The notes below the pieces were generated by a model. The model did no database searches. It worked only from the letters and a program-made list of their open reading frames with translations, and had not been told where the DNA came from. A DNA stretch of 64,000 bases from a virus, in the IMG/VR virus record IMGVR_UViG_3300026488_000012, positions 96,001 through 160,000 of that record, one strand, 5' to 3'. The position numbers and the translations under genes were made by a program. Shown here piece after piece: positions 17,379 through 61,873 of this stretch (within the stretch, counting starts at the first letter, position 1; every line of letters starts with the position of its first letter).

Positions 17379-17380
17379 TT

Positions 17381-17486
17381 GGTAATATTTTTAATTTTAA
17401 CTATATATATTGTTATCTTACTAAAATGCAATAAAACTACAAGATTAGGAGGTAAATATGAGTAATGAATTTTACAAAATTAAGGA
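17381..17486 (+). repeat. 106-bp direct repeat, copy 1 (early promoter + RBS + first 10 codons)
   Basis: Identical base for base to 25946-26051; 75 bp of it also occurs at 30132-30206. Confidence 0.95.
17414..17421 (+). promoter_or_regulatory. Putative early (virion RNAP) promoter core TATCTTAC
   Basis: One mismatch to the phiKZ early promoter core TATATTAC, with an upstream T-rich tract. Recurs at 19035, 22760, 25979 and 30158, with variants at 28299, 42703 and an exact TATATTAC at 46632. Confidence 0.6.
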
Positions 17487-19014
17487 CGTATATAAAGATA
17501 CAAGTGTCCTTGTTAGTTACAAAGATAAGGAGATAGAATTTCCGATAGAGATTCTAATTAATCGTAGAAGTAGAGATAGTTACGATAAAGGCATGTTTAC
17601 CGTACTCAATAAGTACGTAGACTGGAAAGGAGTCGGTTTTAAAGAAAAACTATTTAATAGAAATGTAGAAGTGTATAATAATATCCTAGAACTCACTAAC
17701 TACGACCATATAACAGCAGAGGATTATAAGGTGGTTGGTCCTATCTTGGATATGTTTAATTTTCAAGAAGTTAAAGATTTCATAAAGAAATACAATATTG
17801 TAACACCGTTATCTCATTTAGACGATGAGTTTAACTTATCTATAGAGATAAACAAAGAAGGTAGTAGAGTTCAAACTTATCTCAAGGAGGATTATATAGA
17901 GCTTGTTGCGTTATTGACTATTATTAAGTCGGTTATAGGTCCTATCGGAATGTACGCTGAATTCAATACCGGTAAAATACCAGAGAATTATAGAGAGCTA
18001 ATTCTAATCAATTTTCTACTGGAGCATGAGATATCAGAAACCCCTCCATTTAAGAAGTTAATAGGGTATATAGAAAAACTTGTTAAGAACATAGAGACGA
18101 ACGAGGAAGAGCTTAACATACGCTTAATTAAAAGGGGTATAGATAAGGAAAATCTCATCTATAGTATACTTGGAGGAGTGTTGTTTACTAAACTTTGTCT
18201 AAGAAACGAGATTAACGATACTGAGGATAAGAGTATAATAAATACTCTTTATAGTTACGTTAGTAATAAATTAGAGATTAAGAATACTGCTACTTCTAAT
18301 ATCAGGATTAAGAAGTATTATATAAGTAGCCAGGATGGCGAAGATACTGAGAGTATTATAGAAAGCTATAGGATACCTACTGAATTAACACAAGGTTGGA
18401 TAGAGGAGTTCAAATTTGCCACTAGCGATATACGTAGGATGTATAGGTTTTATACAGGTAAGGAACCAAGTGAAGAATTAAAAATGTTTGAACATGCCAT
18501 ACATAGTATATCTCCTAAAGAAATACCAGAAGTAAATATCAAACTAGCGTTTATTATATTAAAGAAGATTATAGACCCGAGAGCTTATTTGTATGTAGAC
18601 GCTAAGAATATTAAAAATGTATTAACAGTAGCAGCTACTGTGGCTTGGGAATTAGATTTCCAAAACATGTCTTTGGTATTGTCTAGTCAAAAAGCACCTG
18701 GTGGTATTGGTTTTAGTATAAATAGTAAAACAAAACTTGATTCAATTACTAAGGAATTGTTAGCAAAGGAATTTCCTCTTAATGTTTACAATTTTAATAA
18801 AAGAAAGAATATCATAACTAAAGTGGATAATGTTGTAGAGAAATATATAACAAAGATTGCCGAGAAGATGTTAACTACTCAGTATTTATGTATGTTACCA
18901 GAAAATATTATAGAAGAAGTAACAGGTAGTAGAAAGAGGATAATAGAGGTTCCTACGTCTATTAGAAGTATACTAACAGAGCTACTAATTAAGATAGAAT
19001 ATACAGTTAATTAA
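17458..19014 (+). CDS. Non-virion RNA polymerase promoter-specificity (sigma-like) subunit, phiKZ gp68-like
   Basis: 518 aa; synteny sbcD-gp66-gp67-gp68-gp69-gp70; YLKEDYIELVALLTIIKSVIGPIG and ESIIESYRI segments recall gp68 family proteins; shares its leader with the nvRNAP beta genes. Confidence 0.7.
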   Translation: MSNEFYKIKDVYKDTSVLVSYKDKEIEFPIEILINRRSRDSYDKGMFTVLNKYVDWKGVGFKEKLFNRNVEVYNNILELTNYDHITAEDYKVVGPILDMFNFQEVKDFIKKYNIVTPLSHLDDEFNLSIEINKEGSRVQTYLKEDYIELVALLTIIKSVIGPIGMYAEFNTGKIPENYRELILINFLLEHEISETPPFKKLIGYIEKLVKNIETNEEELNIRLIKRGIDKENLIYSILGGVLFTKLCLRNEINDTEDKSIINTLYSYVSNKLEIKNTATSNIRIKKYYISSQDGEDTESIIESYRIPTELTQGWIEEFKFATSDIRRMYRFYTGKEPSEELKMFEHAIHSISPKEIPEVNIKLAFIILKKIIDPRAYLYVDAKNIKNVLTVAATVAWELDFQNMSLVLSSQKAPGGIGFSINSKTKLDSITKELLAKEFPLNVYNFNKRKNIITKVDNVVEKYITKIAEKMLTTQYLCMLPENIIEEVTGSRKRIIEVPTSIRSILTELLIKIEYTVN

Positions 19015-19080
19015 TTTGTAAGTTTTATTAAAACTATCTTACTAAACTGCAACAAAACAAAAAAAAAACAGGAGGTAAAT

Positions 19081-20565
19081 ATGAATCCAGAAGGACTATT
19101 TAATCAACCAACAGTTCCAAATTTTACAGTGGAACAATTCTATATCATCCCTACTGAGGGATATAAAGATATGGTCATTAGACCGATTAATCTTAATGTA
19201 GACCGTGAGGATTTAAACAGGATAGTAGACTTATTAAAGACTAAACTATCTGGCTATGACGTAAAAATAAACCCGCTTGAGTTGTCGGGTATGAACATTA
19301 TAGAACCCGGGGACAAAGTGCTTCCTACAGAAATACCAGGCGGATGGGGTCAACCAAGAGGTGTGTTTCTACTAGTGATTAAGTATACTGACGCTGTGAC
19401 AGGTGTAGACGAGATGGTGTATTTAACAGGATTTACCGATACGCCTAATTTCAATCCAGTTACAGGTGCAGTCGATGAGAGCATGTTACTATATCCTAAC
19501 ACTATGGTAATACTAACAAAAGTTACAAATGTTGACAAATTTGGTAACCCGTATACTTATTATAGGGTTACTAATACATTAAATCTTGAGTACGATATCA
19601 GTACAGGTGAGTATTACACTATTGATGATCTAACCAACGCTAAGTTTATGTTAAGACCTGTGGACATTATGAGAAAAATAGAAGATTTGGAATTATCAGG
19701 AGACGCTATTTCTAGCGCAAATACTTCTTCAACTACTAAAATTATATCGGCTATTAAGAAACCCGACTTATTACCAACTATACATGTCACAGAGACATTG
19801 AACGGTCTTATAACGGGCGCGATTATGACCGATGGTACAAATGTTTATGATACATTAAAAGCAAGCGATAGCGTACTCGATCCTACATCCATTCTTCTAT
19901 ATAACTCATTTATTAAATCGTTATTAAGGATAACAAAAGGTCGTATGTATTTTAGTATTAAAGAATTAGCATTGTTGGATAATTCTGTTTTAAACAAAAT
20001 AACAATCATAAGACAAGTAGGGCAACCTACTATGGAAATGCCTGATATACTAACAAGTAACGTTTCTGAGGAGGTATATATACCTACCATAGAAGCTAAG
20101 TTATCAACTATGATAAGAGACATGGTATCAACGCTAATAACAAAGAACATGCTAATGTCCATTACATTCACGATGACTAACGCCACCATAGACGGTAGTA
20201 TTTACCTCACGCCTATTCACGCTACTCCTGTAACAGGAGATCTCGATGTTAAGTACTTGGTAAACAAGTTTAAGTTAGAGTTTGAGCAATTAGTGGTCCC
20301 TGCTATAACATATAATAATAGTTTAGTGTTGAATATTAACGTTTATGCTAGTATACTTGGAGAAACCAAAATCTCAATATCTGTGAACGGTGGACCTGAG
20401 ATATTGTTTATATATCCTACGTTCGCAGATAATCTCTATAACTCACTATTATCAGACGTTAATAAATTTAACGAAGTCACCAGCAGTTATAAAAATATTG
20501 TAGATGTCGCTCTTGGTGAACTCAAATATATGACAGATTCTCAAACAGCAAAAATTGTACAATAA
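19081..20565 (+). CDS. picA: phiKZ gp69-like protein (PicA, phage-nucleus protein importer candidate)
   Basis: Immediately after gp68-like; IPGGWGQPRGVFLLVI...YLTGFTD...GAVDESMLLYPN matches my recollection of the gp69 family. Confidence 0.55.
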   Translation: MNPEGLFNQPTVPNFTVEQFYIIPTEGYKDMVIRPINLNVDREDLNRIVDLLKTKLSGYDVKINPLELSGMNIIEPGDKVLPTEIPGGWGQPRGVFLLVIKYTDAVTGVDEMVYLTGFTDTPNFNPVTGAVDESMLLYPNTMVILTKVTNVDKFGNPYTYYRVTNTLNLEYDISTGEYYTIDDLTNAKFMLRPVDIMRKIEDLELSGDAISSANTSSTTKIISAIKKPDLLPTIHVTETLNGLITGAIMTDGTNVYDTLKASDSVLDPTSILLYNSFIKSLLRITKGRMYFSIKELALLDNSVLNKITIIRQVGQPTMEMPDILTSNVSEEVYIPTIEAKLSTMIRDMVSTLITKNMLMSITFTMTNATIDGSIYLTPIHATPVTGDLDVKYLVNKFKLEFEQLVVPAITYNNSLVLNINVYASILGETKISISVNGGPEILFIYPTFADNLYNSLLSDVNKFNEVTSSYKNIVDVALGELKYMTDSQTAKIVQ

Positions 20566-21792: not shown

Positions 21793-21990
21793 GTGATGAG
21801 ACAAACTATGACAGTTGATAATAAAGGAAATATCATTCTGCTTACAGAGAGGAATAATAACCTCTCTGTTAATTACAAAAATATAAAGTACAGTAACTTT
21901 TCAGAGTTCATGAAAGACGCTTATGGTGTCGATGAAAATGCTTCATCTATAGATGAAGCTATGAAAGCGATTGAAAAATATAATAAATAA
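21793..21990 (+). CDS. Small hypothetical protein
   Basis: 65 aa, SD aaggag, followed by a terminator. Confidence 0.65.
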   Translation: MMRQTMTVDNKGNIILLTERNNNLSVNYKNIKYSNFSEFMKDAYGVDENASSIDEAMKAIEKYNK

Positions 21991-22016
21991 CACGTGACTA
22001 TATAGTCACGTGTTAT
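21987..22016. terminator. Terminator between convergent genes, perfect 30-bp palindrome
   Basis: ataacacgtgactat|atagtcacgtgttat followed by a T-rich tract. Confidence 0.75.
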
Positions 22017-22026
22017 GTTTATTTTT

Positions 22027-22383
22027 TTATTCTTTATATTTAACGAGATAATCGTTATATAGGTCTTGTAGTATCTCACCTTTTATTATCTTAAGTTTTG
22101 TAGGTAGCTTACCTCTTTCAAAATCTATCTTAAAATCATAATTACTTAGATTGTTTATTCTAATATTAGGATAGATATATACATCAGGTATTTTAAATTT
22201 AGTCTTAATAAGTCCTCTTAAGTCTCTTATCCATTTATAAACTTCATATGGTTCTATTGTTACTATATCAACCATATCGTCCGTTATATAACCGGATGCT
22301 ATTATATTCTCCCAGTAATTTAACAATCTTTCATCAAGTTGAGGATTATTATAATTAGTATAATCAGATAAAACGGATAACAT
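22027..22383 (-). CDS. Conserved phiKZ-like small protein (possible LysM/baseplate-wedge-like)
   Basis: IEPYEVYKWIRDLRGLIKTKFKIPDVYIYPNIRINNL pattern; minus-strand gene between gp70-like and nvRNAP beta. Confidence 0.4.
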   Translation of the reverse strand: MLSVLSDYTNYNNPQLDERLLNYWENIIASGYITDDMVDIVTIEPYEVYKWIRDLRGLIKTKFKIPDVYIYPNIRINNLSNYDFKIDFERGKLPTKLKIIKGEILQDLYNDYLVKYKE

Positions 22384-22423
22384 ATCTAAGTCCTTTCTTT
22401 TTTTAATTCACTAAAAAAGAAAT

Positions 22424-22455
22424 ACATCTATGAGACCGTTAAGTCTCATAGATGT
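22424..22455 (-). terminator. Terminator hairpin after 22455..22691
   Basis: acatctatgagac-cgttaa-gtctcatagatgt, 13-bp stem, followed on the minus strand by a T-rich run. Confidence 0.65.
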
Positions 22456-22691
22456 CATAGTTTCTCTTCTAGATTACTTACAATAAAATATGTACCGTTT
22501 GTCTCTACATTCTCTTCTAAGTGTGTTATTACACCGCATATATCTTTAAATTTAGTATTAGGTGCATAGTACATCCAACCATCTTCTCCTGGCTTTAAGA
22601 ATCTCAATAACACCCTACTGTCGTTTATTGGTTTATTTGTTTCAAATTCTACTGTAAACTTAGCTCCTGTAACTGATTCCAAATGTAACAT
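22455..22691 (-). CDS. Small hypothetical protein
   Basis: 78 aa with strong SD taaggagg on the minus strand. Confidence 0.7.
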   Translation of the reverse strand: MLHLESVTGAKFTVEFETNKPINDSRVLLRFLKPGEDGWMYYAPNTKFKDICGVITHLEENVETNGTYFIVSNLEEKL

Positions 22692-22813
22692 ACATACCTC
22701 CTTATTGATTTTTTTACACCTTATTAGGTATATCTTAATTTTTTTATAAATTTCATTTATATCTTACTGAGATGTAATTAAATAAACAAAAAAAAAGAAA
22801 AAAGGAGTTGAAA

Positions 22814-23359
22814 ATGAGATTCTTATTTATTTTAATTTATACGTTAACCCTATATGGGAAAACAATGAATACGACTGAAATATCAGTCGTACATAAAGAT
22901 AGGAGACTGGTAAATGAGTATTATCAAGAGTTAAAAAACCTGTCTGATGACCAGAAATTCTGGTTGAGTGAGGTGTACAAGACCTGTCTAGAGTATGATC
23001 TAGGTTATACTTGCGTAGCGATAGCTTGGGAAGAATCCAAGTTTAATAAATGGGGAGATAACGAAGCAGGTGACTACGGTTTAATGGGTATAAACCTATA
23101 CTGGTACATGATAGACAACGGACTTAATTATAGAAACAAATATAGGAGAATAGAAGTCCGCACTAGGTTAATAAGAGATAGTTACTATAACTTAAGGTAC
23201 TCTATATCTAAGCTTATAAAATTAAGAAAGAAGCATAAGAACAACTGGTTTAAAATATGGGGTTGTTATAACGGAGGTACAACCCCTAACTATTACTATA
23301 GTAGAAGAATATTGAATAGAATTTATGCTTTTAGAAAATGGTTAAAGACAAATAACTAA
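22814..23359 (+). CDS. Lytic transglycosylase (SLT family) with N-terminal signal peptide
   Basis: Catalytic-Glu motif AIAWEES, GLMGIN, and WGCYNGG; hydrophobic N-terminus MRFLFILIYTLTLYG; ATG 22814 follows SD aaggag. Confidence 0.8.
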   Translation: MRFLFILIYTLTLYGKTMNTTEISVVHKDRRLVNEYYQELKNLSDDQKFWLSEVYKTCLEYDLGYTCVAIAWEESKFNKWGDNEAGDYGLMGINLYWYMIDNGLNYRNKYRRIEVRTRLIRDSYYNLRYSISKLIKLRKKHKNNWFKIWGCYNGGTTPNYYYSRRILNRIYAFRKWLKTNN

Positions 23360-23373
23360 AAAGGAGGGTAAAG

Positions 23374-23613
23374 ATGAATAGAAGATATAAAATACTTCTA
23401 ATGGCGTTAATAGTTATCCTAAGTGTATTATTAGTGATGTATGAAGACACAGAATATAAAAAAGTTAAAAAAGGGGAGTATGAGTTACAGTGTCTAATAA
23501 GAGATAAAGGATGGGTCACCATAGACCCGTCTAAAGTTGACGGACACGATCCAGAATCAGACTGTTGGTCTTTTACTAACGGATGGGCTTGTAACTGTGA
23601 AGTTACAAAATGA
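23374..23613 (+). CDS. Small membrane-anchored protein with Cys-rich C-terminus
   Basis: N-terminal TM segment ILLMALIVILSVLLVM; C...WVTIDP...CWSFTNGWACNC. Confidence 0.7.
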   Translation: MNRRYKILLMALIVILSVLLVMYEDTEYKKVKKGEYELQCLIRDKGWVTIDPSKVDGHDPESDCWSFTNGWACNCEVTK

Positions 23614-23644
23614 CCCCCCTATCTTTTTTCTTTTTATTATATAC

Positions 23645-23717
23645 TGAGATTCAATATTTACCTCCTAATTTTATAGTTTATAGACTATAGGGATATCCCT
23701 ATAGTCTATGTTTTTTT
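23645..23717 (+). ncRNA. Candidate antisense sRNA complementary to the nvRNAP-subunit RBS
   Basis: 23654-23679 is the reverse complement of the leader aaactacaagattaggaggtaaatat (24/26 identity) and sits directly before a terminator whose U-tract is on the + strand. Ends are approximate. Confidence 0.4.
23680..23709 (+). terminator. Intrinsic terminator, perfect 30-bp palindrome with GGGATATCCC core
   Basis: atagactatagggat|atccctatagtctat followed by gttttttt. Confidence 0.8.
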
Positions 23718-23800
23718 AATAGAATTTTGTGTTGTAAAATATTTCAATTACATTATATTAATTAGTAAAAAAGGACAAACTAACTAAAAGGAGAAGCAAT

Positions 23801-24415
23801 ATGAGCAAAAAGACAGTGATCGGGATTGTAGGGTATGATAATTGTGGTAAAGATACTTTTGCCAGATATCTAAAAGAAGAATTAATTAAAACTTACAACA
23901 GCAGAGTCGAAATACTACATTTTGCAGATATCTTAAAGAAACTTGTTTCTAATATTTTGGAAACAGATATTGATACAATTGAACGGTTTAAGAAAGATAA
24001 TGGTATTAAACCTATTAATATTGTATTTGACAATAGTAGCAGAGAATACACAATGAGAGATTTTATAATTAAAATAGCTAAGACTGTAGTTAATGTTTTT
24101 GGTATTGATATTTTTGCAAGAGTAGTAGAACGAAATATACTAGAGTCTGAATCGGGTATATTTATTATACCAGATGTAAGATTCTTAATAGAAGCAGAGA
24201 TAATGAAAAAAGAGCTGGGAGGTATTTTAGTAAAGATAAATTCAGATATAGATGGTTGTAATAACACAGGTTATGAGTATGAAATATCGTTAATAGAAAA
24301 ACATGGACTTATAGATCATTATGTCAAGTTTAAAAATTTAGAAGAATCTATAAGAGAGTCTAAACGTATAAGTGTAATAAACGAAATAAAAAATAAATTA
24401 AAGGATGAACAATGA
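23801..24415 (+). CDS. Deoxynucleoside monophosphate kinase (T4 gp1-like)
   Basis: P-loop IGIVGYDNCGKDT, HFADILK, and IIPDVRFLIEA. Confidence 0.8.
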   Translation: MSKKTVIGIVGYDNCGKDTFARYLKEELIKTYNSRVEILHFADILKKLVSNILETDIDTIERFKKDNGIKPINIVFDNSSREYTMRDFIIKIAKTVVNVFGIDIFARVVERNILESESGIFIIPDVRFLIEAEIMKKELGGILVKINSDIDGCNNTGYEYEISLIEKHGLIDHYVKFKNLEESIRESKRISVINEIKNKLKDEQ

Positions 24416-24972
24416 GTATATCATATATAGTAAGATTTATAAATGGTGGAGAAGAGTGGTTTTCAGTTGTTGTGGATGAGGATAACGAAGCTAACTTTAA
24501 GAATGGTTTAATAAAGACAGGTGATAATAGACTTTTTGATGATGAAGATACGGTCATACTCACATCTAAACTTGATTTAGATGGAATCGCACATTTATTA
24601 GACGTGTGTATGTCTGATAGTAATGGCGGTAGAGATCATATCCTAATGAATACAAGACTTGTAAATAAAAACGATCGCATAGCAGATGTACACGTGTCTA
24701 TACTGGTTTACCTTACTATAGGAGCTCTAGAGATATTAGAAACACTATTAGGTAAACCGAATATTAATATAGATGAACTTATAAATGCTATAGACGATGG
24801 TGATGACGAGGTTATCGATATGGTGTACTCGTTAGTAAACACTATAGCTGCGTTAGATGCTTTAGAAGTATTAGACGAGATGATTAAATATTATCCTATG
24901 TTGATGAAGTATGAAGAAACGATTAAAACAGTGAGAGAACACTGGAGAGAGTTATATGATAAAATTATGTAA
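24412..24972 (+). CDS. Hypothetical protein
   Basis: 186 aa, ATGA overlap, SD aagga. Confidence 0.7.
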   Translation: MSISYIVRFINGGEEWFSVVVDEDNEANFKNGLIKTGDNRLFDDEDTVILTSKLDLDGIAHLLDVCMSDSNGGRDHILMNTRLVNKNDRIADVHVSILVYLTIGALEILETLLGKPNINIDELINAIDDGDDEVIDMVYSLVNTIAALDALEVLDEMIKYYPMLMKYEETIKTVREHWRELYDKIM

Positions 24973-24984
24973 AGGAGTATAGGT

Positions 24985-25854
24985 ATGTTGTTTAGTTATT
25001 CAGAGAAAGATATAGGAGACTATACTAAATGGTCTCCTATAAAAGAAATAAAAGAGCGTGTAGGTAATTTTATTTTTGCTATTGATAAAGATGGAGAGCT
25101 ATACGGATATCTAACGAATGAAGATAACAAGACTTATAAAGCTGTAAATAGGGAAGGTTACTTTATAAAAGAGACGATTGATTTAAGTTTTACATTTGTT
25201 ATCTCTAATATAGAGGATGAGATTAATGATTTATTAGCTAATCCTAATGTTTTTATTAAGAGAATAAAGGATGAGTTATACGACAACAGAGATGAGATAA
25301 ATAGTGGTGATGGTCATATTTTAAACGATAGTGTTATTGTAAAATTAAATACGGAATATCCACTGATAGATGACGATGAAGATGAATTTAAAGAATCCAC
25401 TCTGAGTAATACGTTAGCACAGTTAATAAAAGCAGGTCTTATTTTTTCTTTAGTCTTTACAAAGTCGTTAGGAGATACGAGTAAACCTGTAATATATGAT
25501 AAATTAAGTGTTGATAATAGAGAGATTATCCTTCCTCACTACGAATATAATTCTTCTGTTTTAATAGTTGATATAGATGAAACAGATAAAAATGTAATAG
25601 TACTTGGGAAAGGCTTAAATTTACATATTGACTCTAAAGTTGAAAAGCTACCAAAGGATTTATATTTCTTATTACATGTTTATCTAACTAAGTATGCTAA
25701 TATTACAAAGGATAATCCTCTTAGTATTATCCTAACTAAAGAACTTATTAACGAATATGTATCTAACATATATAGTGTAGAACCATCGGAAGGATTATTA
25801 GTTAATGAAATGTCTAGAGTAGATATAGAGACTAACTTAGGTATAAGTATTTAA
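24985..25854 (+). CDS. Hypothetical protein
   Basis: 289 aa, SD aaggag. Confidence 0.7.
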   Translation: MLFSYSEKDIGDYTKWSPIKEIKERVGNFIFAIDKDGELYGYLTNEDNKTYKAVNREGYFIKETIDLSFTFVISNIEDEINDLLANPNVFIKRIKDELYDNRDEINSGDGHILNDSVIVKLNTEYPLIDDDEDEFKESTLSNTLAQLIKAGLIFSLVFTKSLGDTSKPVIYDKLSVDNREIILPHYEYNSSVLIVDIDETDKNVIVLGKGLNLHIDSKVEKLPKDLYFLLHVYLTKYANITKDNPLSIILTKELINEYVSNIYSVEPSEGLLVNEMSRVDIETNLGISI

Positions 25855-25945: not shown

Positions 25946-26051
25946 GGTAATATTTTTAATTTTAACTATATATATTGTTATCTTACTAAAATGCAATAAA
26001 ACTACAAGATTAGGAGGTAAATATGAGTAATGAATTTTACAAAATTAAGGA
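25946..26051 (+). repeat. 106-bp direct repeat, copy 2
   Basis: Identical to 17381-17486, including ATG AGT AAT GAA TTT TAC AAA ATT AAG GA. Confidence 0.95.
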
Positions 26052-28263
26052 TATTATAAATAGATACGCAAAGTATTTTAAAGATAACAACTCTGAGTTA
26101 AGACTGAGATATGAGTTATTTTCAATTCACGCGCTTAACCCGTTTGTTATATATAACTCTTCTCCAAGAGGATTGATGATGGCGTCGCATGTATCACAGA
26201 TACTTGTTATAGATAATCCTGAGAAAGACATAATACAGACGCCTACTATGAATGATCTTAGTAGATATGTTATATCTAAGAAGTTTCTACATGATGCAGA
26301 GATAATTGATGTAATAAGTAGATATAGTAATCCATCCATAGGTAAAGAGGTAGAGTATGATATCATCTATAGAAGACTAGATGACGGTAAGGTTGACGTA
26401 ATGAAAATACCATTATTTAATAAATTTCACACCTATTTTGGATTCCTATACAAATTCCTATTAAATCATAGAGAGTTATACCCGGGAACAATAGTTAAAA
26501 AAGATACATACGTAGCAGTACCGCCTACTGTTATAGATGTTGATGACGAGGGCAATTTTGACTATGGGTTTGGTTTAAATGCTAACGTAGCAATGATAAC
26601 TATACCGGAGACTGCAGAAGATGGTATAGTGATATCCGAATCATTCGCTAAGAAACTTAAATTTAAGACTATAGAGAAAAGAGTTTTATTCGTAGAACCT
26701 GATGAGGTATTACTTAATCTTTATGGAAATGATGAACATTATAAGCCTTTCCCTGAGATAGGAGAGGAAATAAACCCAGACGGTGTTTTAATGGCAAAGA
26801 GAAAGATAGATGATGAGATAATAATAGGACTATTGTCTAAGGATGAGTTAAGAAGAGTTAATCCTATGTTCGACGAGGCTGTATATTGTAAAGGAAAAGT
26901 TATAGATATTAAAGTCTATAAAAATTATAAGAACAAGATGATACCTATGGAACCAGACGAGTTTATTAACAAATATGTACAGGGTATGAGTGATTACCAT
27001 AGAAGAATAGTTGATATATACAACGTTCTTAAAAGATCAGACCCTAACTTAGAAATGACTCCACTGTTTATAAAATATGTATCGAACAGTATAGGTTATT
27101 TAGAATCAGAAGAGTATAGAAGAAAGAAAGTATATAGAAAGGAGGAGATAGAACTTTACAGAATAGAAATAGAAGTAGTTAGGGAAATAATACCTACTAA
27201 AGGATTTAAGTTGTCAGACTTCCACGGGGGTAAATCTGTGATAGTGGATGTATGGAAAGACGAAGATATGCCAGTAGATGAATTTGGAAATAGAGCTGAT
27301 ATCATAGCTGACCCGTCTGCTACCGTATCCAGACTTAACATAGGTAGGATGTACGAGAGGTACATAAAGGCTGCGTCCAGAGAAGCTAAGAGACAGCTTA
27401 TAAATAAAATAAGAGAGTTACTTAATCTAACTGAAGTATCTTCTCAAGATGTCGATATATTATCAGACGAACAAGTAGTTAATTTATTTAAAGAATATGT
27501 AATAGAATTTGTAAATATGTTCGATACTGAACAAAAAGCTGCTTACAACCAAGTATTACAGGGTAATGATATTGTCTCTATGAGAGAGATAATTAAAGAG
27601 ATAGTAGATGAGGAGTTCTATATCTATCTAACTCTGGATAATCCGAAAAGAGCTTATGAGATAGTGGTAGATATAGAGTTGTCTAAATTTAAACCTCCAT
27701 ATGGTAAGGTTAAGTTCAATTATTATGGTACTCCTGTGGAAACTAAAAATCCGGTAATGATAGCACCGATGTATTACATACTTCTATCTAAAATAGCAGA
27801 TGACTATCTCGTAACATCTTCTGCTAAGTTAAATCATTTCGGTACTCCTATTACTGTATCATCAGTGGATAAACACAGGTTACCGCATAGGAATTCTCCT
27901 ACAAGAGTATTAGGAGAGACTGAAACTAGACTATATGCGTCGTATTGTGGTAGAGAGTTTCTAGCCGAGTTAAGAAATAGAAATTCGTCTATAGAACAAC
28001 ACGCTACAGTCTATAGAAATATATTAAACGCAGATGAACCTACAGATATAGATGATGTTATACCGAGAGACGTTTATCCGTATAAGAACGATAGACCTCT
28101 AACTATGTTAGAAGCATTATTTCATTCAGTAGGACTGGATTTGAAATATACGGAAGATATAGATTTACTTCACGAGCCACAGCAATTAAAGACTAATGAA
28201 AATCTCGGTGATGATATAGAAATATACGAGGAAGATAAATCATCTTCAGATAGAGAGGGTTAA
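26023..28263 (+). CDS. rpoB: Non-virion RNA polymerase beta subunit, C-terminal part (phiKZ gp71/73-like)
   Basis: NSSPRGLMMASH, TAEDGIVISESFA, GFKLSDFHGGKSVI, SRLNIGRMYE and RVLGETETRL are beta-subunit catalytic-region motifs. Confidence 0.9.
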   Translation: MSNEFYKIKDIINRYAKYFKDNNSELRLRYELFSIHALNPFVIYNSSPRGLMMASHVSQILVIDNPEKDIIQTPTMNDLSRYVISKKFLHDAEIIDVISRYSNPSIGKEVEYDIIYRRLDDGKVDVMKIPLFNKFHTYFGFLYKFLLNHRELYPGTIVKKDTYVAVPPTVIDVDDEGNFDYGFGLNANVAMITIPETAEDGIVISESFAKKLKFKTIEKRVLFVEPDEVLLNLYGNDEHYKPFPEIGEEINPDGVLMAKRKIDDEIIIGLLSKDELRRVNPMFDEAVYCKGKVIDIKVYKNYKNKMIPMEPDEFINKYVQGMSDYHRRIVDIYNVLKRSDPNLEMTPLFIKYVSNSIGYLESEEYRRKKVYRKEEIELYRIEIEVVREIIPTKGFKLSDFHGGKSVIVDVWKDEDMPVDEFGNRADIIADPSATVSRLNIGRMYERYIKAASREAKRQLINKIRELLNLTEVSSQDVDILSDEQVVNLFKEYVIEFVNMFDTEQKAAYNQVLQGNDIVSMREIIKEIVDEEFYIYLTLDNPKRAYEIVVDIELSKFKPPYGKVKFNYYGTPVETKNPVMIAPMYYILLSKIADDYLVTSSAKLNHFGTPITVSSVDKHRLPHRNSPTRVLGETETRLYASYCGREFLAELRNRNSSIEQHATVYRNILNADEPTDIDDVIPRDVYPYKNDRPLTMLEALFHSVGLDLKYTEDIDLLHEPQQLKTNENLGDDIEIYEEDKSSSDREG

Positions 28264-30131: not shown

Positions 30132-30206
30132 TTTTTAATTTTAACTATATATATTGTTATCTTACTAAAATGCAATAAAACTACAAGATTAGGAGGTAAA
30201 TATGAG
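30132..30206 (+). repeat. Leader repeat, copy 3 (75 bp)
   Basis: Identical to the core of 17381-17486, ending at ATGAG. Confidence 0.95.
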
Positions 30207-32241
30207 AATAGGCGTTAGAACACTTTATAGATTACCATTAAAAGACATAGTTGAGTTAAGAACTAATTTAACATTAGTATTCGAAGACGGTATAGAGATA
30301 CAAGCTACGTATAAAGAGGTTATAATATTTAGAGCATTAACAGATTTTCTTACCAAATGGGAAGTACCCATTACGTCAGATATGTGGTTAAGTAACTTCT
30401 ATACGAAAGGTTACTTCAGTAAGGATACTTACTTAGAAATGTATTCTCTTATGTATCAGAGAATCGTTAAACTAATTCTTGAACCGCAAGGAAGATATGG
30501 AGAACATTCCGAGGTATTAAAAGACATATTCAAATCTGTTAATATTTTCGTAAATGAGATTGTATCTAAGATACAGGATTATAATATAGGTATAGAGATT
30601 ATAGATATTTTACCTATAGCGTTAGACGAGGAACAGCTGTTATCTATTATGGAAGTAGAGAAAAATCCTACACAAGAATCTATCGAACACACGTATCAAG
30701 TGTTAGATAAAGTTATACATAAACCTGAGAATAGTGGAAAAGTTATGAGACTCGTTTATGATTCAGGTATGGTTAATCTCAATCAGCTAAGACAGCTATT
30801 CGGTAGTAGGGGATTCTTAACAGAGATAAATTCACAGATATTTAAGAAACCTATGATAAATAGCTTTACATTAGGTTTTAGGGATATGTATGAAGCTATT
30901 ATAGAGTCAAGAGCGGGTGCGAAAGCTCTTAACTTATCTACAAAAGCTATTCAGAAATCTGAGAAGACAGCAAGAGAATTTCAGTTAGCTACTATGCCTG
31001 TCGAAGAAATAGTTTACGGTGACTGCGGTAACAGAGACTATATGGAGATAACTGTAAGACCTAAAGAAATAGATGAAGATGGTAATGTAGTACACCAAGG
31101 AGACCTTAAAAACCTGTTAGGTTCTAAGTTTTTAAACGATAAAGGAGAATGGGAAACAATTACTCCTGAACATAAATATTTAGAAGGACAGACTATTAAG
31201 TTAAGGTCAGTATTACACTGTAAATTAAGAAACAAGAAGCAAATATGTACTGCGTGTTATGGAGACCTCGCTTATGGTATGTTTTTACATCAAAATGTGG
31301 GACATATAAATACTACAAACATAACAAGGGATATTTCACAGTCACTACTATCTACTAAACACTTATTAAAGTCAGCATCATCCGCTCCACTTAATCCACA
31401 TCCATCTGTATTTGAGTTCTTTAACCTTAAGGATGAGAAGCTATTTATAAAACCTGAGTATATAGCTAAAAAGAACAAAAACAAAATTTATATACTTGTA
31501 CCACAATCACAGGCTAGAGGGTTAAGAGGAATAAATGATATCAATATCCTTAACGTCAATATTAACAAGATATCAAGAATAACTAACATCGCAATAGTGA
31601 TAGAAGATCCAGAAGGTAATAAAGAAATACATCCGGTGTCTATACTATCGGATAGAAGATATGGATTTTTCACATTCGATTTTATCAGATATATAAGAAA
31701 GAACGGTTATTTTGTAATGGCAGAGTTTCCTGATTTTTATGCTATCGATATCTCAAACATCGATAGGAAGCTACCTATTATAAAATATGAGAGAGCAGAG
31801 TTTGACTTTAATATCTTAAGCGATGAGTTTAGTAAGCTTATAGCGGATAAGAAATACGTTATAGTAGGAGGTAAACGTAAATCTGAATATACTCCTGAAG
31901 TATTAGTTCAGAAACTATTTGACTTACTTAACAAGAAGCTATCTATAAATATTAAAAAGATAGAAGCTATGGTTTACGGATTTACTGCTTATAACTTAGA
32001 CCAAGATAACTTCGATTTAGGAAGAAACTCCGAATATATGGATGTTATCGGATTGAAGTATGCTATAGATTATAGGTCTATAGGGGGAAGTTATGACTGG
32101 AGTAGATTCACTACTAAAATATATTCTCCGTATATGTTCTTCCCTAGAAATAAACCTGATCATCCATTAGACGTATTATTCAAACCTAACGAAGTATTAA
32201 ATTACTATAAAAACGCATACCCATTAATAAAGGATAAGTGA
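30202..32241 (+). CDS. rpoC: Non-virion RNA polymerase beta-prime subunit, C-terminal part (phiKZ gp74-like)
   Basis: QLRQLFGSRGFL, ESRAGAKAL (bridge-helix region), zinc site LHCK...ICTACYG, and QSLLSTKH (trigger-loop region). Confidence 0.9.
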   Translation: MRIGVRTLYRLPLKDIVELRTNLTLVFEDGIEIQATYKEVIIFRALTDFLTKWEVPITSDMWLSNFYTKGYFSKDTYLEMYSLMYQRIVKLILEPQGRYGEHSEVLKDIFKSVNIFVNEIVSKIQDYNIGIEIIDILPIALDEEQLLSIMEVEKNPTQESIEHTYQVLDKVIHKPENSGKVMRLVYDSGMVNLNQLRQLFGSRGFLTEINSQIFKKPMINSFTLGFRDMYEAIIESRAGAKALNLSTKAIQKSEKTAREFQLATMPVEEIVYGDCGNRDYMEITVRPKEIDEDGNVVHQGDLKNLLGSKFLNDKGEWETITPEHKYLEGQTIKLRSVLHCKLRNKKQICTACYGDLAYGMFLHQNVGHINTTNITRDISQSLLSTKHLLKSASSAPLNPHPSVFEFFNLKDEKLFIKPEYIAKKNKNKIYILVPQSQARGLRGINDINILNVNINKISRITNIAIVIEDPEGNKEIHPVSILSDRRYGFFTFDFIRYIRKNGYFVMAEFPDFYAIDISNIDRKLPIIKYERAEFDFNILSDEFSKLIADKKYVIVGGKRKSEYTPEVLVQKLFDLLNKKLSINIKKIEAMVYGFTAYNLDQDNFDLGRNSEYMDVIGLKYAIDYRSIGGSYDWSRFTTKIYSPYMFFPRNKPDHPLDVLFKPNEVLNYYKNAYPLIKDK

Positions 32242-33777: not shown

Positions 33778-33813
33778 ATGAAATATTTTCTTTTTTCATA
33801 TAAGGAGTTATAT

Positions 33814-34410
33814 ATGGCTGATTGTAAAATATGTTTTAGTACAAATGAGGTAGCCGAGTTATACGAGATTATGCAGAATAAAACTAACTTATCGGTAAAT
33901 GAGTTAAAGGAGATTATAGCTAACAAAGCTGGTGTGAATTCCTTATGTAAAATACTTAATGAATTCTTAGATACTATAGAAGGTAAACTACCGGATGATC
34001 TAAGTATTAAAATAAAAAACAAGATACCTGATATAGATTCAAAAATATCCGAGGTAGATGAAACAATTAGAAGGGTTAATGAGAAAATAGAAGAACTGGA
34101 AGAAATTAAGATAGATAAAAAAGACCTTAAAGAGTTTGAGAAGGTTAAGAATTGTTTTAATTCTTTAAAAATAGTTAGGGAAAAGGTAGAGGTTAAAGAT
34201 GGTGTATTTGAGTTAGAAAATACACCAACATTTCTTCTTGGTAACCCGTTCTTAAATAGCGACTATATAGTAAATTCCTCAGATGGTGTTTATTTCTTAG
34301 AAAAAGAACCATCCTTGTTATATGGTAAGAAGTTCTTAACAGAGTCTAGTCTTAATGGTTATATGTATGTTAAGTACTTTACATTAATAACAGATTGTGA
34401 AGATATGTAA
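33814..34410 (+). CDS. Coiled-coil protein, first gene of a putative fibre/decoration module
   Basis: ATG 33814 follows SD aaggag (ORF-track start 33778 lies at the hairpin edge); heptad region ISEVDETIRRVNEKIEELEE. Confidence 0.6.
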   Translation: MADCKICFSTNEVAELYEIMQNKTNLSVNELKEIIANKAGVNSLCKILNEFLDTIEGKLPDDLSIKIKNKIPDIDSKISEVDETIRRVNEKIEELEEIKIDKKDLKEFEKVKNCFNSLKIVREKVEVKDGVFELENTPTFLLGNPFLNSDYIVNSSDGVYFLEKEPSLLYGKKFLTESSLNGYMYVKYFTLITDCEDM

Positions 34411-43795: not shown

Positions 43796-43860
43796 AAAAA
43801 AATTAAAGTATGTTTATCTATGAGTACATATGATGTCTAAAATTAAATTAGGAGGTAAAT

Positions 43861-45540
43861 ATGAACAAAGTACTAAAATCTGTTCTTAATGACAAAAATA
43901 AGAAACATATGAACAGAGTGGTAATGGAGGGTATACCTAAACACTCCATATTAAAAGCACCTGAGTTTGTAGATGCATTAATACGTGATAACATAAAAGA
44001 GTTAGATCCATCTATTAAACTCGTTTATAAAGGATTTAGGTACTTAGATCCTAGAGAAGAGTATGAGACTGATAAAATAGGTACGAGTTATGATTTAGCT
44101 ATGAACTATCTGTATAAGATAGAATTACAATTTGAGTTAGATGGTGAACCATTTAACCGTATATTAGCGTTACCATTTGTAGAAGAGAATGGTAGTGTAA
44201 TTAAATTATCAGATACACAATATGTTATGTTACCAGTTCTCACTGAGTATGCTATCAATCCTACCGGTGGTAAAGTATTTATTAGATTGTTAAAAGACAA
44301 ATTAAACTTTATGAGACAGGATAGACCGTTCATAGTTAATGGTATCCTAACAAGCTTGCCATATATATATGCTCACACATATAAATTAAAGAGTAATGGT
44401 ATATTCGATAAGGTACCGTTAGGTTTATATTTATTCTATAAAGATGGTTTATTCGAGACCTTTAAAAAGAGAGCAGGTGTAGATGTAATAATTACTGACA
44501 AAGATGAAGAAGTTGAAAAATTTAGAGAGACTCACGATGTATACGAAGTAACAGGTAAGAAACCTAAGATGGTTAAAATATCTAACTATAGACCTCCTAA
44601 GTTTAAAGTTCTGTTACCTAAAGAACATAGTAAGAACTTATTCGCTAAATCATTAATAGCTAACCTGTTATTCGCTTTTGAATTATATTCAGATTTTGTT
44701 AATTTGTATTATAAGGTTCATTATGACTCTTTAGAACAAGAGAGAGGATTTTGGAAATTATTACTGGCTAAAATTATTTTCAAAGATGCATACGAAATCG
44801 ATAAACTTCTAAGTAACATTCAAACACACTTAGACTTGTTAAAGACGTATTTAGACGTGACGGTTAAGAGTAGGTTGGAAGAATTAGGGATTTATCTAAA
44901 CGATTTCTACGACCTTATAGCTTATGTCATGGAGAATTACCATAAGCTTGTCATTAACTCAGAAAAAAGATCTGGAGATATAGAGAACAGATATATAGAA
45001 GTTCTCTATTACGTGCTATTCGATATTATAGCGGGTATTAATAAGACGTTCTTTAAGATAAACGAAAACTTCAGAAACAAACAAGCTACTATTAAGAACA
45101 TAAACAGTATATTTAATCAGGAGTTATCCCCTAAGAAGATTTATTCGATTATTAAAAATGGGGGAACTAACTTAGCAATTATGGGGATAGACTACACCGG
45201 AGATAACTTATATCCTAAGATATCTTCTATATTAGAAGATCAAAATAGAGGTAGAGGTGTTAAGAGAGATAAGGATAACGCTTTTCCTCCATACATAAGG
45301 AATATAAGAGCTGAGGATATAGTTTTCGGTTCTATCTTATATCTACCTAAAAAATCTCCTACTCCGAGATTAAGAATTAATCCTTATATAGAGATTAATC
45401 CTAATAACGGTAAGTTTATAATTGATGAGTATAAAAACTTTATTGATATTGTTAACAGTATGTTAGAAGGTAAATTAGAGGATGATGAACTACTCGATAG
45501 GATTATTGTAGATGAAGACGATAAAGTAGAAGGAGCCTAA
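43861..45540 (+). CDS. rpoB: Non-virion RNA polymerase beta subunit, N-terminal part (phiKZ gp123-like)
   Basis: GFRYLDPREEY, LALPFVEENG...LSDTQYVMLPVLTE, IFIRLLKDKLNF, and GSILYLPKKSPTPRLRINPY; two genes after MCP as in phiKZ. Confidence 0.8.
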   Translation: MNKVLKSVLNDKNKKHMNRVVMEGIPKHSILKAPEFVDALIRDNIKELDPSIKLVYKGFRYLDPREEYETDKIGTSYDLAMNYLYKIELQFELDGEPFNRILALPFVEENGSVIKLSDTQYVMLPVLTEYAINPTGGKVFIRLLKDKLNFMRQDRPFIVNGILTSLPYIYAHTYKLKSNGIFDKVPLGLYLFYKDGLFETFKKRAGVDVIITDKDEEVEKFRETHDVYEVTGKKPKMVKISNYRPPKFKVLLPKEHSKNLFAKSLIANLLFAFELYSDFVNLYYKVHYDSLEQERGFWKLLLAKIIFKDAYEIDKLLSNIQTHLDLLKTYLDVTVKSRLEELGIYLNDFYDLIAYVMENYHKLVINSEKRSGDIENRYIEVLYYVLFDIIAGINKTFFKINENFRNKQATIKNINSIFNQELSPKKIYSIIKNGGTNLAIMGIDYTGDNLYPKISSILEDQNRGRGVKRDKDNAFPPYIRNIRAEDIVFGSILYLPKKSPTPRLRINPYIEINPNNGKFIIDEYKNFIDIVNSMLEGKLEDDELLDRIIVDEDDKVEGA

Positions 45541-54094: not shown

Positions 54095-54871
54095 ATGAAC
54101 AAGTTGAATTTTACAAAGGGTATAGTTAACATACATAAAGGCGTCTATACTGAAATAGACGCTATTCTAGATACGAGATACGCGGTGTTGTCCAGATATT
54201 TTCCAGATATCGCTAAAAAGATAGAGACTAATAAAACCGGTCTAGAGTATTATCACTCTAGACCTATTGATGAATTTTTTAATCTTCCATATGAAGTTTT
54301 TAATTTATTTTATAAAAGAAGAAATAGAGAGGTTCTTAAAAATGCTAAAATTAATGCTGTTATACATTTTCTTAATTTAACCTTAGCTGATTTGTTAAAT
54401 AAGAGAATAAATTCAGAACAAGGTAATTCTATAGTTAATTTAGTGGTCAATACGTATCCGTACCTTCTTAATAAATCAGAGATTAATCTTATGGAGAATG
54501 CTATTAAGTTAAAGCTGACATATCCTACTATGGTTAATGTGAAATTCAGTTATATACCATACCATAAACTAACATCCAGATACATAGATGAGAACTTTGG
54601 TTTAATGGTTATGTATAACTACATAGAGTGGTATAATATAAGAGGTTACCTAAAGGATATAACCCCTAACATACCGCACGTTAAATTAATAACACCTGCG
54701 TTAATAGATAAGGCATTAGTATTTAAAGATAACAAGACATACGAAGACTATTTTAAAAGTATGGAGAAAGCTACAATGACATATATAAATTTAGAATTTT
54801 CTGGAATAGAAATATTTAACAGCTTACATTTAGTGCAGTTAAAAGATCAAATGTTAAAGGATGAGAAATGA
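54095..54871 (+). CDS. Conserved phiKZ-like protein with degenerate HAD-like motif I
   Basis: VYTEIDAILDTR near the N-terminus. Confidence 0.4.
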   Translation: MNKLNFTKGIVNIHKGVYTEIDAILDTRYAVLSRYFPDIAKKIETNKTGLEYYHSRPIDEFFNLPYEVFNLFYKRRNREVLKNAKINAVIHFLNLTLADLLNKRINSEQGNSIVNLVVNTYPYLLNKSEINLMENAIKLKLTYPTMVNVKFSYIPYHKLTSRYIDENFGLMVMYNYIEWYNIRGYLKDITPNIPHVKLITPALIDKALVFKDNKTYEDYFKSMEKATMTYINLEFSGIEIFNSLHLVQLKDQMLKDEK

Positions 54872-55470
54872 CAAAAGAAGGACTGAAAAGACTCATAGAC
54901 GAACACTCTATAGAATTAGATAAGGAGAGTGAGAGAGTTAATGTTTCGCCTATCTATACGGACTACTATTATGTAATCAAACCTATAGAAGAAGGTTTAT
55001 TAGTAGAATCTTTAATACCGTATGATAACAGTATGTTCGTTGTGAATACCGATGATAAGCTAGATAGAGTAATATTAGTTAACAAATTACCAGAGAGTAT
55101 TGATAAAAATTATATAAGAGATGAGTATCTTAAAAATTTAAAAGCAGATAATATTACAGATGTTACGGAAATTATTGATAAGTATGTATCTAGATATAAA
55201 GTAAGAATAGACGTAGTCTTAGAATTACTTACTACTGCATTAGGTATATTAGAAAAAGAAGGTATTAAGAAAGTAAAAGATGAATTAGAGAATCTAAAGG
55301 ATTTATCAGAAAAGATAGACACTATAAACAGATTTGATATAGAAGCTATGAAGAAAATCTATAATGGAGAAGGATTAGAAGTACTCGAAAATTTAAATAG
55401 ACAAGTAACAGATTTAATAAATACTTTAATTACAAAGATGAACGAAGTTACTACAGATACTTCTAAGTAA
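54868..55470 (+). CDS. Hypothetical protein
   Basis: 200 aa, ATGA overlap. Confidence 0.7.
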   Translation: MTKEGLKRLIDEHSIELDKESERVNVSPIYTDYYYVIKPIEEGLLVESLIPYDNSMFVVNTDDKLDRVILVNKLPESIDKNYIRDEYLKNLKADNITDVTEIIDKYVSRYKVRIDVVLELLTTALGILEKEGIKKVKDELENLKDLSEKIDTINRFDIEAMKKIYNGEGLEVLENLNRQVTDLINTLITKMNEVTTDTSK

Positions 55471-55499
55471 AATCAGCCATATATAATTCGTATAGAAGA

Positions 55500-55528
55500 G
55501 ATACAGTGGGTTTTTTACCCACTGTATC
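55500..55528 (+). terminator. Terminator hairpin
   Basis: gatacagtgggt-ttttt-acccactgtatc. Confidence 0.7.
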
Positions 55529-55563
55529 CCATTTTAAATTCAAATACAAAAAAGGAGTTGAAA

Positions 55564-61417: not shown

Positions 61418-61873
61418 ATGCCTGAATTTAAATTAGATAAATCAGAGTATAAATCCAACAACTGTTGGTTATTCAGTACTGTATTTATAATAACCTTAAC
61501 CGTTATGGGTATAAGTCTATTAGAGTATTTAAAAAGAAGTAAGGTAGACCATGATGTTTTAATTTTGTCTATTCTTCTTATAGTTGGTTTCTTATTAATA
61601 CTTCTAAGTTTTATTTATCTTACTAATAAGAAAGATGAATCTAAATTAAATTTGAAAGAGACTGAACTCAATACTAAAAATCTTACTAATCTAAAAATGA
61701 AAAGTCTGGGACTTAGAACTAAACTACTAGACGAACGATTGCATAAAAACGAAATAATGAGTATTAGGAAGAATACAAGAGATAGGAAGATAAAATTTAG
61801 AACAGACTATAAATATAAATATCTTAATCTAAGTTACGATAGAGTAAATAAGATAAGATTAGGAGGAATATAG
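61418..61873 (+). CDS. Membrane protein with two N-terminal TM helices and a basic tail
   Basis: WLFSTVFIITLTVMGISLL and VLILSILLIVGFLLILLSFIYL. Confidence 0.7.
   Translation: MPEFKLDKSEYKSNNCWLFSTVFIITLTVMGISLLEYLKRSKVDHDVLILSILLIVGFLLILLSFIYLTNKKDESKLNLKETELNTKNLTNLKMKSLGLRTKLLDERLHKNEIMSIRKNTRDRKIKFRTDYKYKYLNLSYDRVNKIRLGGI

Follow-up and report, generated by a model that had tools for sequence, protein, structure and literature searches.

What does an inverted copy of a phage's own polymerase leader do when it stands directly before a strong terminator, and does it act on the mRNAs that it matches? The DNA analysed here, which we call the window, is a stretch of 64,000 nt, bases 96001-160000 of a 179,975-bp IMG/VR virus contig (30% G+C, ~66% complete) from a hydrothermal-vent metagenome. 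The phage is a phiKZ-like jumbo phage of the lytic type, and a nucleotide search of deposited phages gave no match to it. An earlier note on this DNA had proposed that the locus specifies a ~70-nt antisense sRNA, either standalone with its own promoter or derived from a 3′ UTR, that is aimed at the shared ribosome-binding site (RBS) of the nvRNAP subunit mRNAs. Coordinates are those of the window unless stated otherwise.

Complementarity of the locus to the polymerase leaders

The 26-nt leader AAACTACAAGATTAGGAGGTAAATAT is present in three exact copies on the + strand, at 17434, 25999 and 30178, and on the minus strand it is found at 23654-23679 with two mismatches, a match for which 100 shuffles give an expectation of 0. 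Read on the + strand, the segment 23654..23679 (hereafter the anti-leader) is the reverse complement of the leader with two differences, and in its targets the Shine-Dalgarno sequence and the first two start-codon bases fall within the stretch covered. Direct reading of the pairing confirmed the earlier count of 24 Watson-Crick pairs, one G-U pair and one A.C mismatch, with 16 contiguous pairs across AUUAGGAGGUAAAUAU that begin at the Shine-Dalgarno sequence and extend into the AUG by two bases. The three 26-mer leaders, all on the + strand, belong to the gp68-like gene 17458-19014 (leader at 17434..17459), the RNAP beta-type gene 26023-28263 (25999..26024) and the RNAP beta/beta-prime-type gene 30202-32241 (30178..30203). 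Two shorter matches that had also been pointed out proved exact: 18 nt at 43845..43862 (+), at the RBS of gene 43861-45540, and 13 nt at 19070..19082 (+), at the RBS of gene 19081-20565, which adjoins the gp68-like gene. The anti-leader is in addition a 17-nt complement to a gene that lies beyond the window (61767-61782 of the phage genome, G000).

Searches with the proteins bear out part of the gene labelling used in the earlier note. The product of ORF 17458-19014 matches PHIKZ068 as well as a gene of KTN4 whose annotation is nvRNAP subunit, ORF 26023-28263 has an Rpb2 domain and RNAP-beta PHROG matches, ORF 30202-32241 matches an RNAP beta-type PHROG, and ORF 43861-45540 matches a PHROG labelled 'polymerase'. 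The name 'PicA-like' for the gene at 19081, by comparison, reflects only its position beside the gp68-like gene.

Duplex energies were computed for 23645-23679 against all 174 translation starts of the phage genome. The three genes with the nvRNAP leader gave predicted duplexes of -32.6, -32.6 and -32.4 kcal/mol and four further genes with AGGAGGTAAATATG gave -28.7, -25.3, -24.7 and -22.5 kcal/mol, while the remaining genes reached -19.7 kcal/mol or weaker, with a genome median of -11.2 kcal/mol. These seven genes stand apart from the background as a target set, and the seed is complementary to the translation-initiation regions of mRNAs that are encoded elsewhere. An exact antisense match of more than 12 nt to a translation start was found for two of the 42 segments that lie upstream of a terminator, the anti-leader (18 nt) and 55471-55486 (16 nt); in the shuffled control one segment in 2520 reached 16 nt. 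The second of these (+) consists of the first 16 nt past the stop codon of ORF 54868-55470, 11 nt before a hairpin at 55498-55530, and is the exact complement of the start region 33808-33823 (+), which contains the ATG (33814) of ORF 33814-34410; the predicted duplex has an energy of -29.5 kcal/mol. Both of these ORFs are without an assigned function.

Among the 359 genes of two genomes (174 in this one and 185 in its relative G001), the anti-leader is the sole inverted copy of any gene's 26-nt leader. Its homology is limited to the transcribed leader, whereas the direct copies sit in a repeat of 75-106 nt that starts just past an upstream hairpin and continues through the promoter and the leader into the first codons. 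Outside the 26-mer, the intergenic region matched no other part of the genome significantly. These limits bear on an explanation that we consider a serious contender, if one with less than an even chance, namely that the anti-leader is an inert scar without regulatory effect. It would have been left behind when the terminator-promoter-leader cassettes recombined or suffered a deletion, or would be what remains of the 5′ end of a gene once encoded on the opposite strand, and it would lack an effect because it is poorly expressed, masked in a long mRNA or too scarce. A copy that ends at the limits of the transcribed leader, without the promoter and the coding part of the direct repeats, argues against a scar; a copy that carries two mismatches next to perfectly homogenised targets, and that has no promoter, argues for one. 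Since it has two differences while its three targets are identical, the anti-leader has not been homogenised together with them.

Antisense oligomers of 9-12 nt directed at the RBS of the phiKZ nvRNAP (055, 068) and PicA (069) mRNAs block synthesis and abolish plaques (PMC12571901), so that a complement of the nvRNAP leaders, if expressed, would hardly be neutral. Were it of no use, a transcribed 26-nt sequence complementary to essential RBSs should carry a cost (PMC12571901), yet the same sequence is found in two samples, which again speaks against an inert scar. Among the contigs of two DNA runs, a Logan contig covered 17457-25975 without any difference, indicating that the locus is not an assembly chimera, and no variant within 23600-23720 was among the best-supported differences listed for these runs. 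An inversion between inverted repeats was also considered and dropped, because perfect identity extends over just 16-18 nt and no strand-changing joint was reported in the contigs of the two runs.

Operon, terminator and promoters

Directly after the anti-leader, as had been claimed, stands a strong intrinsic terminator on the + strand (23679..23717). It consists of a 14-bp hairpin at 23679-23710 with a 4-nt loop and a GGGATATCCC apex, followed by a T7 tail. With its T-tract on the + strand, the hairpin in its present arrangement is a genuine terminator of that strand, as opposed to sequence upstream of a minus-strand gene, which counts against the scar as the remnant of such a gene. Upstream, an early (vRNAP-type) promoter at 22740..22785 (+; site 22764; 33.1 bits, rank 23 of 28) drives an operon that contains a lytic transglycosylase (SLT domain) gene at 22808..23359 (+), with a likely start at ATG 22814 and a product 70% identical to its G001 homologue, and a 79-aa ORF at 23374..23613 (+). 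The latter has an N-terminal hydrophobic segment and was called a membrane protein; a search of 5.8 billion proteins gave no homologue. The stop codon of this ORF is at 23613, and downstream of the operon's early promoter there is no other + strand terminator before 23679. Because the terminator at 23679 is the only one on the + strand after the operon genes, the anti-leader lies in the operon's 3′ UTR. A 3′-UTR-borne antisense segment, the alternative named in the earlier note, fits this anatomy.

The remaining 3′ UTR (23614..23653, +) consists of C6, a T-rich tract and the supposedly promoter-like TATATACTGAGATTCAAT; it resembles the T-runs that follow the terminators of the cassettes and holds no recognisable promoter. 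Across 27 gene-terminator pairs of the genome the hairpin usually overlaps or adjoins the stop codon, its start lying at a median offset of -3 nt from that codon's end, compared with 65 nt here, and a distance of at least 60 nt occurs in three of the 27 pairs. Several of the phage's terminators share the GGGATATCCC apex or have (C)AGATAC arms, a sign of related palindrome families that could mediate recombination in either orientation. A likeness between the anti-leader's hairpin and the one before 26023 (CTATAG..GATATC..CTATAG) was set aside; it is suggestive, but such apexes are common among the terminators of this phage.

Folding predicted the seed to be mostly unpaired in RNA forms of 72 nt and 104 nt (P(paired) ~0.2). 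In the full-length 933-nt mRNA the prediction changes to pairing with a coding sequence (P(paired) 0.77), long-range predictions of this kind being weak. These folds also bear on a cis-acting 3′ UTR, in which the anti-Shine-Dalgarno segment would pair with one of the operon's own RBSs, as a 3′ UTR segment of icaR of S. aureus reportedly does with the RBS of its own mRNA. Folds of 378 nt and 933 nt do pair the segment with sequences internal to the operon, but the predicted partners (23472-23481 and 23211-23224) are coding sequences and neither is an RBS. Moreover, the 15 best duplex targets include neither gene of the operon, and the extended complementarity is specific to the nvRNAP leader. 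Pairing in cis with the operon's own RBSs is thus unsupported by both duplex ranking and folding, and we regard it as highly improbable.

To score promoters we used a matrix for early promoters derived from the phage's own repeats. Over the whole contig it returned 28 sites of 29.5-47.7 bits, every one of them on the + strand and, with few exceptions, 30-45 nt upstream of a start codon, with the next best match at 13.6 bits; sites in the window include 17418, 19039, 22764, 25983, 28302, 29063, 30162, 42707, 46636 and 57420. The motif is bipartite, with TTTnnAA, a spacer of ~12 nt and TAT(C/A)TTACTAAA-n-TG(C/T)AA(C/T)AAAAC, and it is similar to the AT-rich element, with its centre near -10, by which the vRNAP early promoters of jumbo phages are defined (PMC7598289). 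All three 26-mer leaders stand behind 44.5-bit copies of this motif, and these nvRNAP genes are therefore early genes. If the transcription start site lies ~10 nt past the conserved block, as in those jumbo phages (PMC7598289), the 26-mer would cover nearly the whole 5′ UTR.

A second promoter-like motif, G(T/A)AT-N4-TGA(A/T)TTAAAT, was recognised upstream of non-early genes on both strands, with its TGA 27-32 nt before the start (for example upstream of 7570, 8162, 11846, 16722, 33814, 41950 and 43861 in the window). Its information content is low, yet it is position-locked and strand-biased (TGAA 36 versus 18; TGATGA 6 versus 0), and it is reminiscent of the late TATG(+1) element of phiKZ. 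A Gibbs sampler run on the non-early upstream regions locked onto the post-terminator T-runs, and a TGA-anchored model was used instead.

Neither motif was recovered before the anti-leader, where the earlier note had seen a promoter-like stretch resembling the one at 22764. The early-promoter matrix scores this stretch at -43.8, and its core alone is matched or beaten at 2429 genomic positions. Although 23617-23662 has the 9-mer TACTGAGAT and CAAT in common with the promoter at 22764, it misses the most informative positions of the early promoter: there is no upstream TTTnnAA, ATACT replaces TTACT, and T replaces a near-invariant G. At the candidate TGA site the second motif scores -3.6, whereas its training sites all reach at least 3.0; 12.8% of genomic TGA sites do as well as the candidate, and a sigma-70 scan found no sigma-70-like site upstream of the anti-leader. 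Both phage matrices and the sigma-70 scan thus failed to find the promoter of its own that a trans-acting base-pairing sRNA would have unless it is released at a defined processing site.

These scores weigh on the standalone form of the proposal, a ~70-nt sRNA gene made up of its own promoter at ~23632-23653, the seed and the terminator. Besides the shared 9-mer and CAAT, it can draw on a distance from CAAT to the 26-mer that is nearly that of the cassettes, on a weak hairpin and T-run over the stop codon of the 79-aa gene that could end the upstream mRNA (-13.5 kcal/mol, z -1.45), and on a T-rich tract similar to those that follow the cassette terminators (3-6 of 500 shuffles). Set against this, the early-promoter matrix is sharply bimodal and the candidate falls on the wrong side of the gap between 29.5 and 13.6 bits. 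With neither recurrent promoter class present upstream and no sigma-70-like site, a separate sRNA gene is unlikely, and we give the complete standalone unit little credence. Overall, the earlier proposal keeps its complementarity, its terminator and its homogenised target leaders, all of them real and far in excess of what chance would give, and its targets form a specific set; what fell away is the ~70-nt sRNA with its own promoter.

Possible antisense action from a 3′ UTR and known systems

From the sequence we favour, tentatively and with somewhat less than even confidence, a 3′-UTR-borne anti-RBS that really pairs with the polymerase leaders. In origin it would be an orphan inverted nvRNAP leader, most likely from recombination among the repeated terminator-promoter-leader cassettes. 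Because it lies between the operon's stop codon and the intrinsic terminator, the anti-leader would be made with the tail of the operon mRNA, as the last ~65 nt of a ~940-nt early mRNA or of a processed fragment, and not from a promoter of its own. Predicted to be single-stranded beside the terminator hairpin, the segment would pair along 26 bp with the gp68-like, beta-type and neighbouring leaders, with a contiguous run of 16-18 pairs across the Shine-Dalgarno sequence and the AUG. Such a duplex would block 30S binding and so damp or buffer the synthesis of polymerase subunits.

The anti-leader's sequence and position, its terminator, the promoter of its operon and its in silico target specificity are direct observations. 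In favour of antisense action we count the uniqueness of the copy, its transcribed position 5′ of the terminator, its leader-matched limits, its clean targets and the second similar case. We infer transcription of the segment, pairing in vivo and any benefit to the phage. Against antisense action stand the absence of visible conservation, the different leaders of the nearest genomes and the setting in a variable island, where recombination scars collect; the predicted masking of the seed by coding sequence in the full-length mRNA argues weakly in the same direction. Since the operon promoter is among the weaker early promoters, the antisense segment would be sub-stoichiometric to its many targets. 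The stronger claim of a natural antisense regulator, in which a single 3′-UTR anti-leader occludes the homogenised leaders and sets the level of the whole nvRNAP, we consider rather unlikely. If it is true, the homogenised leaders would serve more than equal expression, by giving one regulator many identical targets, and, together with the second case at 55471-55486, 3′-UTR anti-RBS segments would form a recurring layer of control in this phage.

CpxQ and SroC are bacterial base-pairing sRNAs that derive from 3′ UTRs. As in these, the seed here is located just 5′ of the intrinsic terminator of a parent mRNA, without a separate promoter, and the targets are translation-initiation regions of mRNAs encoded elsewhere. 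The differences are that the usual seed has 7-12 nt compared with 26 nt here, and that the present element is phage-encoded and would set one seed against a family of homogenised leaders. We know of no phage-encoded RNA that controls a jumbo phage's own RNA polymerase. Among phages, the c4 RNA of P1 and P7 is a trans-acting antisense repressor of Ant synthesis (PMC8546580), and the likeness lies in a phage-encoded antisense that acts in trans on a ribosome-binding region and restrains an important phage protein. However, c4 is a processed, structured RNA of 77 bases from a temperate phage and lies in the same operon as its target, whereas here the operons differ and the phage is a lytic-type jumbo phage. 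An Rfam 15 scan that included the phage C4 family found no known family, its only return being a 13-bit chance match to a snoRNA (E 0.61). In mechanism, then, the element would resemble 3′-UTR-derived sRNAs and, among phages, the c4 RNA of P1 (PMC8546580).

The synthetic PNAs used against phiKZ (PMC12571901) act by the same principle and on the same targets (the RBSs of 055, 068 and 069), but they are man-made 9-12-mers, whereas the anti-leader is a candidate genome-encoded counterpart. If antisense action is true, the anti-leader would be the natural counterpart of these lethal oligomers and phages would pull the same lever themselves. Few virulent phages have any predicted sRNAs, and a dRNA-seq study of phiKZ predicted one sRNA of 75 nt that a northern blot could not confirm (PMC8244752).

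Relatives, the variable island and recombination

Closest to this phage are two contigs from vents, G001 (185 kb) and G002 (186 kb), whose core proteins are 24-52% identical to its own, and our searches found no relative closer than ~50% protein identity. A single-protein scan with the beta-type protein returned nothing and a two-protein alignment scan nothing above 47%; no close homologues were found for the kinase-like and 79-aa neighbours of the anti-leader. The leader pattern was absent from viral contigs, and a metagenome scan with it gave two chance matches in unrelated coding DNA. In the source sample (run X1) a relative ~86-87% identical is present at 4-8x depth, for example over window positions 26499-26988 and 30490-30909. 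Both G001 and G002 use other nvRNAP leaders, with partly shared start regions of polymerase-related genes (AAACCAAACAAAAGGAG in G001 and AAAAGGAGTCCAATATG in G002), and neither contains a 3′-UTR complement of a leader.

Gene order near the polymerase genes is collinear with the relatives save for 21796-25854, an island that is found only here, between a 396-aa gene and the beta-type gene, and that is absent from that place in G001. At 70% identity to its G001 counterpart, compared with 24-52% for core proteins, the island transglycosylase suggests horizontal exchange between co-occurring phages. Contigs like G001 reach ~178x in the same sample. Accessory DNA of this kind, with a transglycosylase gained by horizontal transfer, is a setting that favours the inert scar, and because the two nearest genomes lack the leader and the locus is a variable island, a scar is about as likely as antisense action.

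The cassettes, too, actively recombine, which further favours a scar: there are exact repeats of 106 nt and 124 nt, and in a contig from the second sample (X2) position 17380 is joined to 25946 via the 106-nt repeat, skipping 8565 bp. This joint may be either a deletion or mini-circle form, as in the exchanges at PeSLs of T4, or an assembly collapse. The PeSL cassettes of T4-type phages combine an early promoter with a stem-loop and lie at the borders of variable genes, where recombination shuffles modules (PMC2839356, PMC4122927). The 75-106-nt repeats described here share this build, being repeated units of an early promoter and a stem-loop terminator, and the anti-leader likewise lies in a variable island. 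PeSLs differ in having sigma-70-like promoters, as opposed to the phage's own vRNAP-type motif. The anti-leader element, for its part, is a hairpin with an inverted leader and without a promoter, and PeSLs are not known to occur as inverted partial copies. If the anti-leader is only a scar, it shows that repeated terminator-promoter-leader cassettes scatter orphan copies of the leader, and the finding is then an ordinary one.

The earlier note had reasoned that an intact minus-strand gene at this place in relatives would make the element the leftover leader of a deleted gene, and what the relatives contain comes close to this. Downstream of the transglycosylase operon, both G001 and G002 have a convergent 711-aa gene on the opposite strand, the start of which abuts a hairpin. 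Deleting the body of such a gene would leave an inverted start region plus hairpin, as expected of a scar, but the homologue of the 711-aa gene in the present phage (G0) has a different leader. Beside the hairpin upstream of the 711-aa gene, G001 and G002 also carry extra copies of their own nvRNAP-type leader, in sense orientation and before tiny or small ORFs. Orphan leaders therefore arise without an antisense role, which is a further argument for a scar. We rejected these copies as a case of co-variation between seed and target, because they are sense copies before small ORFs and not 3′-UTR complements.

The layout in G001 is also the main reason to consider a functional unit on the minus strand, made up of hairpin, leader, RBS and a mini-ORF, that would serve as a ribosome-loading or decoy site or encode a leader peptide. 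On that strand the anti-leader's RBS offers just TTG AAT CTC AGT ATA TAA, that is, TTG plus four codons and a stop, as the earlier note had stated and direct reading confirmed. G001 has the same arrangement: a hairpin, 25 nt, its own nvRNAP-type leader, GGAGG, 6 nt, TTG plus four codons and a stop. However, no promoter of either class was found on the minus strand, all 28 early promoters being on the + strand. The counterpart leaders in G002 precede real ORFs of 43-50 aa, so the mini-ORFs of G001 look like decay, and the likeness to G001 was spotted post hoc. We attach very little weight to a minus-strand unit.

All three genomes have a non-coding region of ~0.9-1.2 kb upstream of the 711-aa gene (L008:6806-8020, or 89795-91010, in G001; ~170400-171150 in G002; about -26119..-25219 relative to the window in this phage). 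In G001 it contains many long palindromes and T-tracts, along with orphan nvRNAP-type leaders before ORFs of 5, 15 and 21 codons. The region could be an origin or packaging region.
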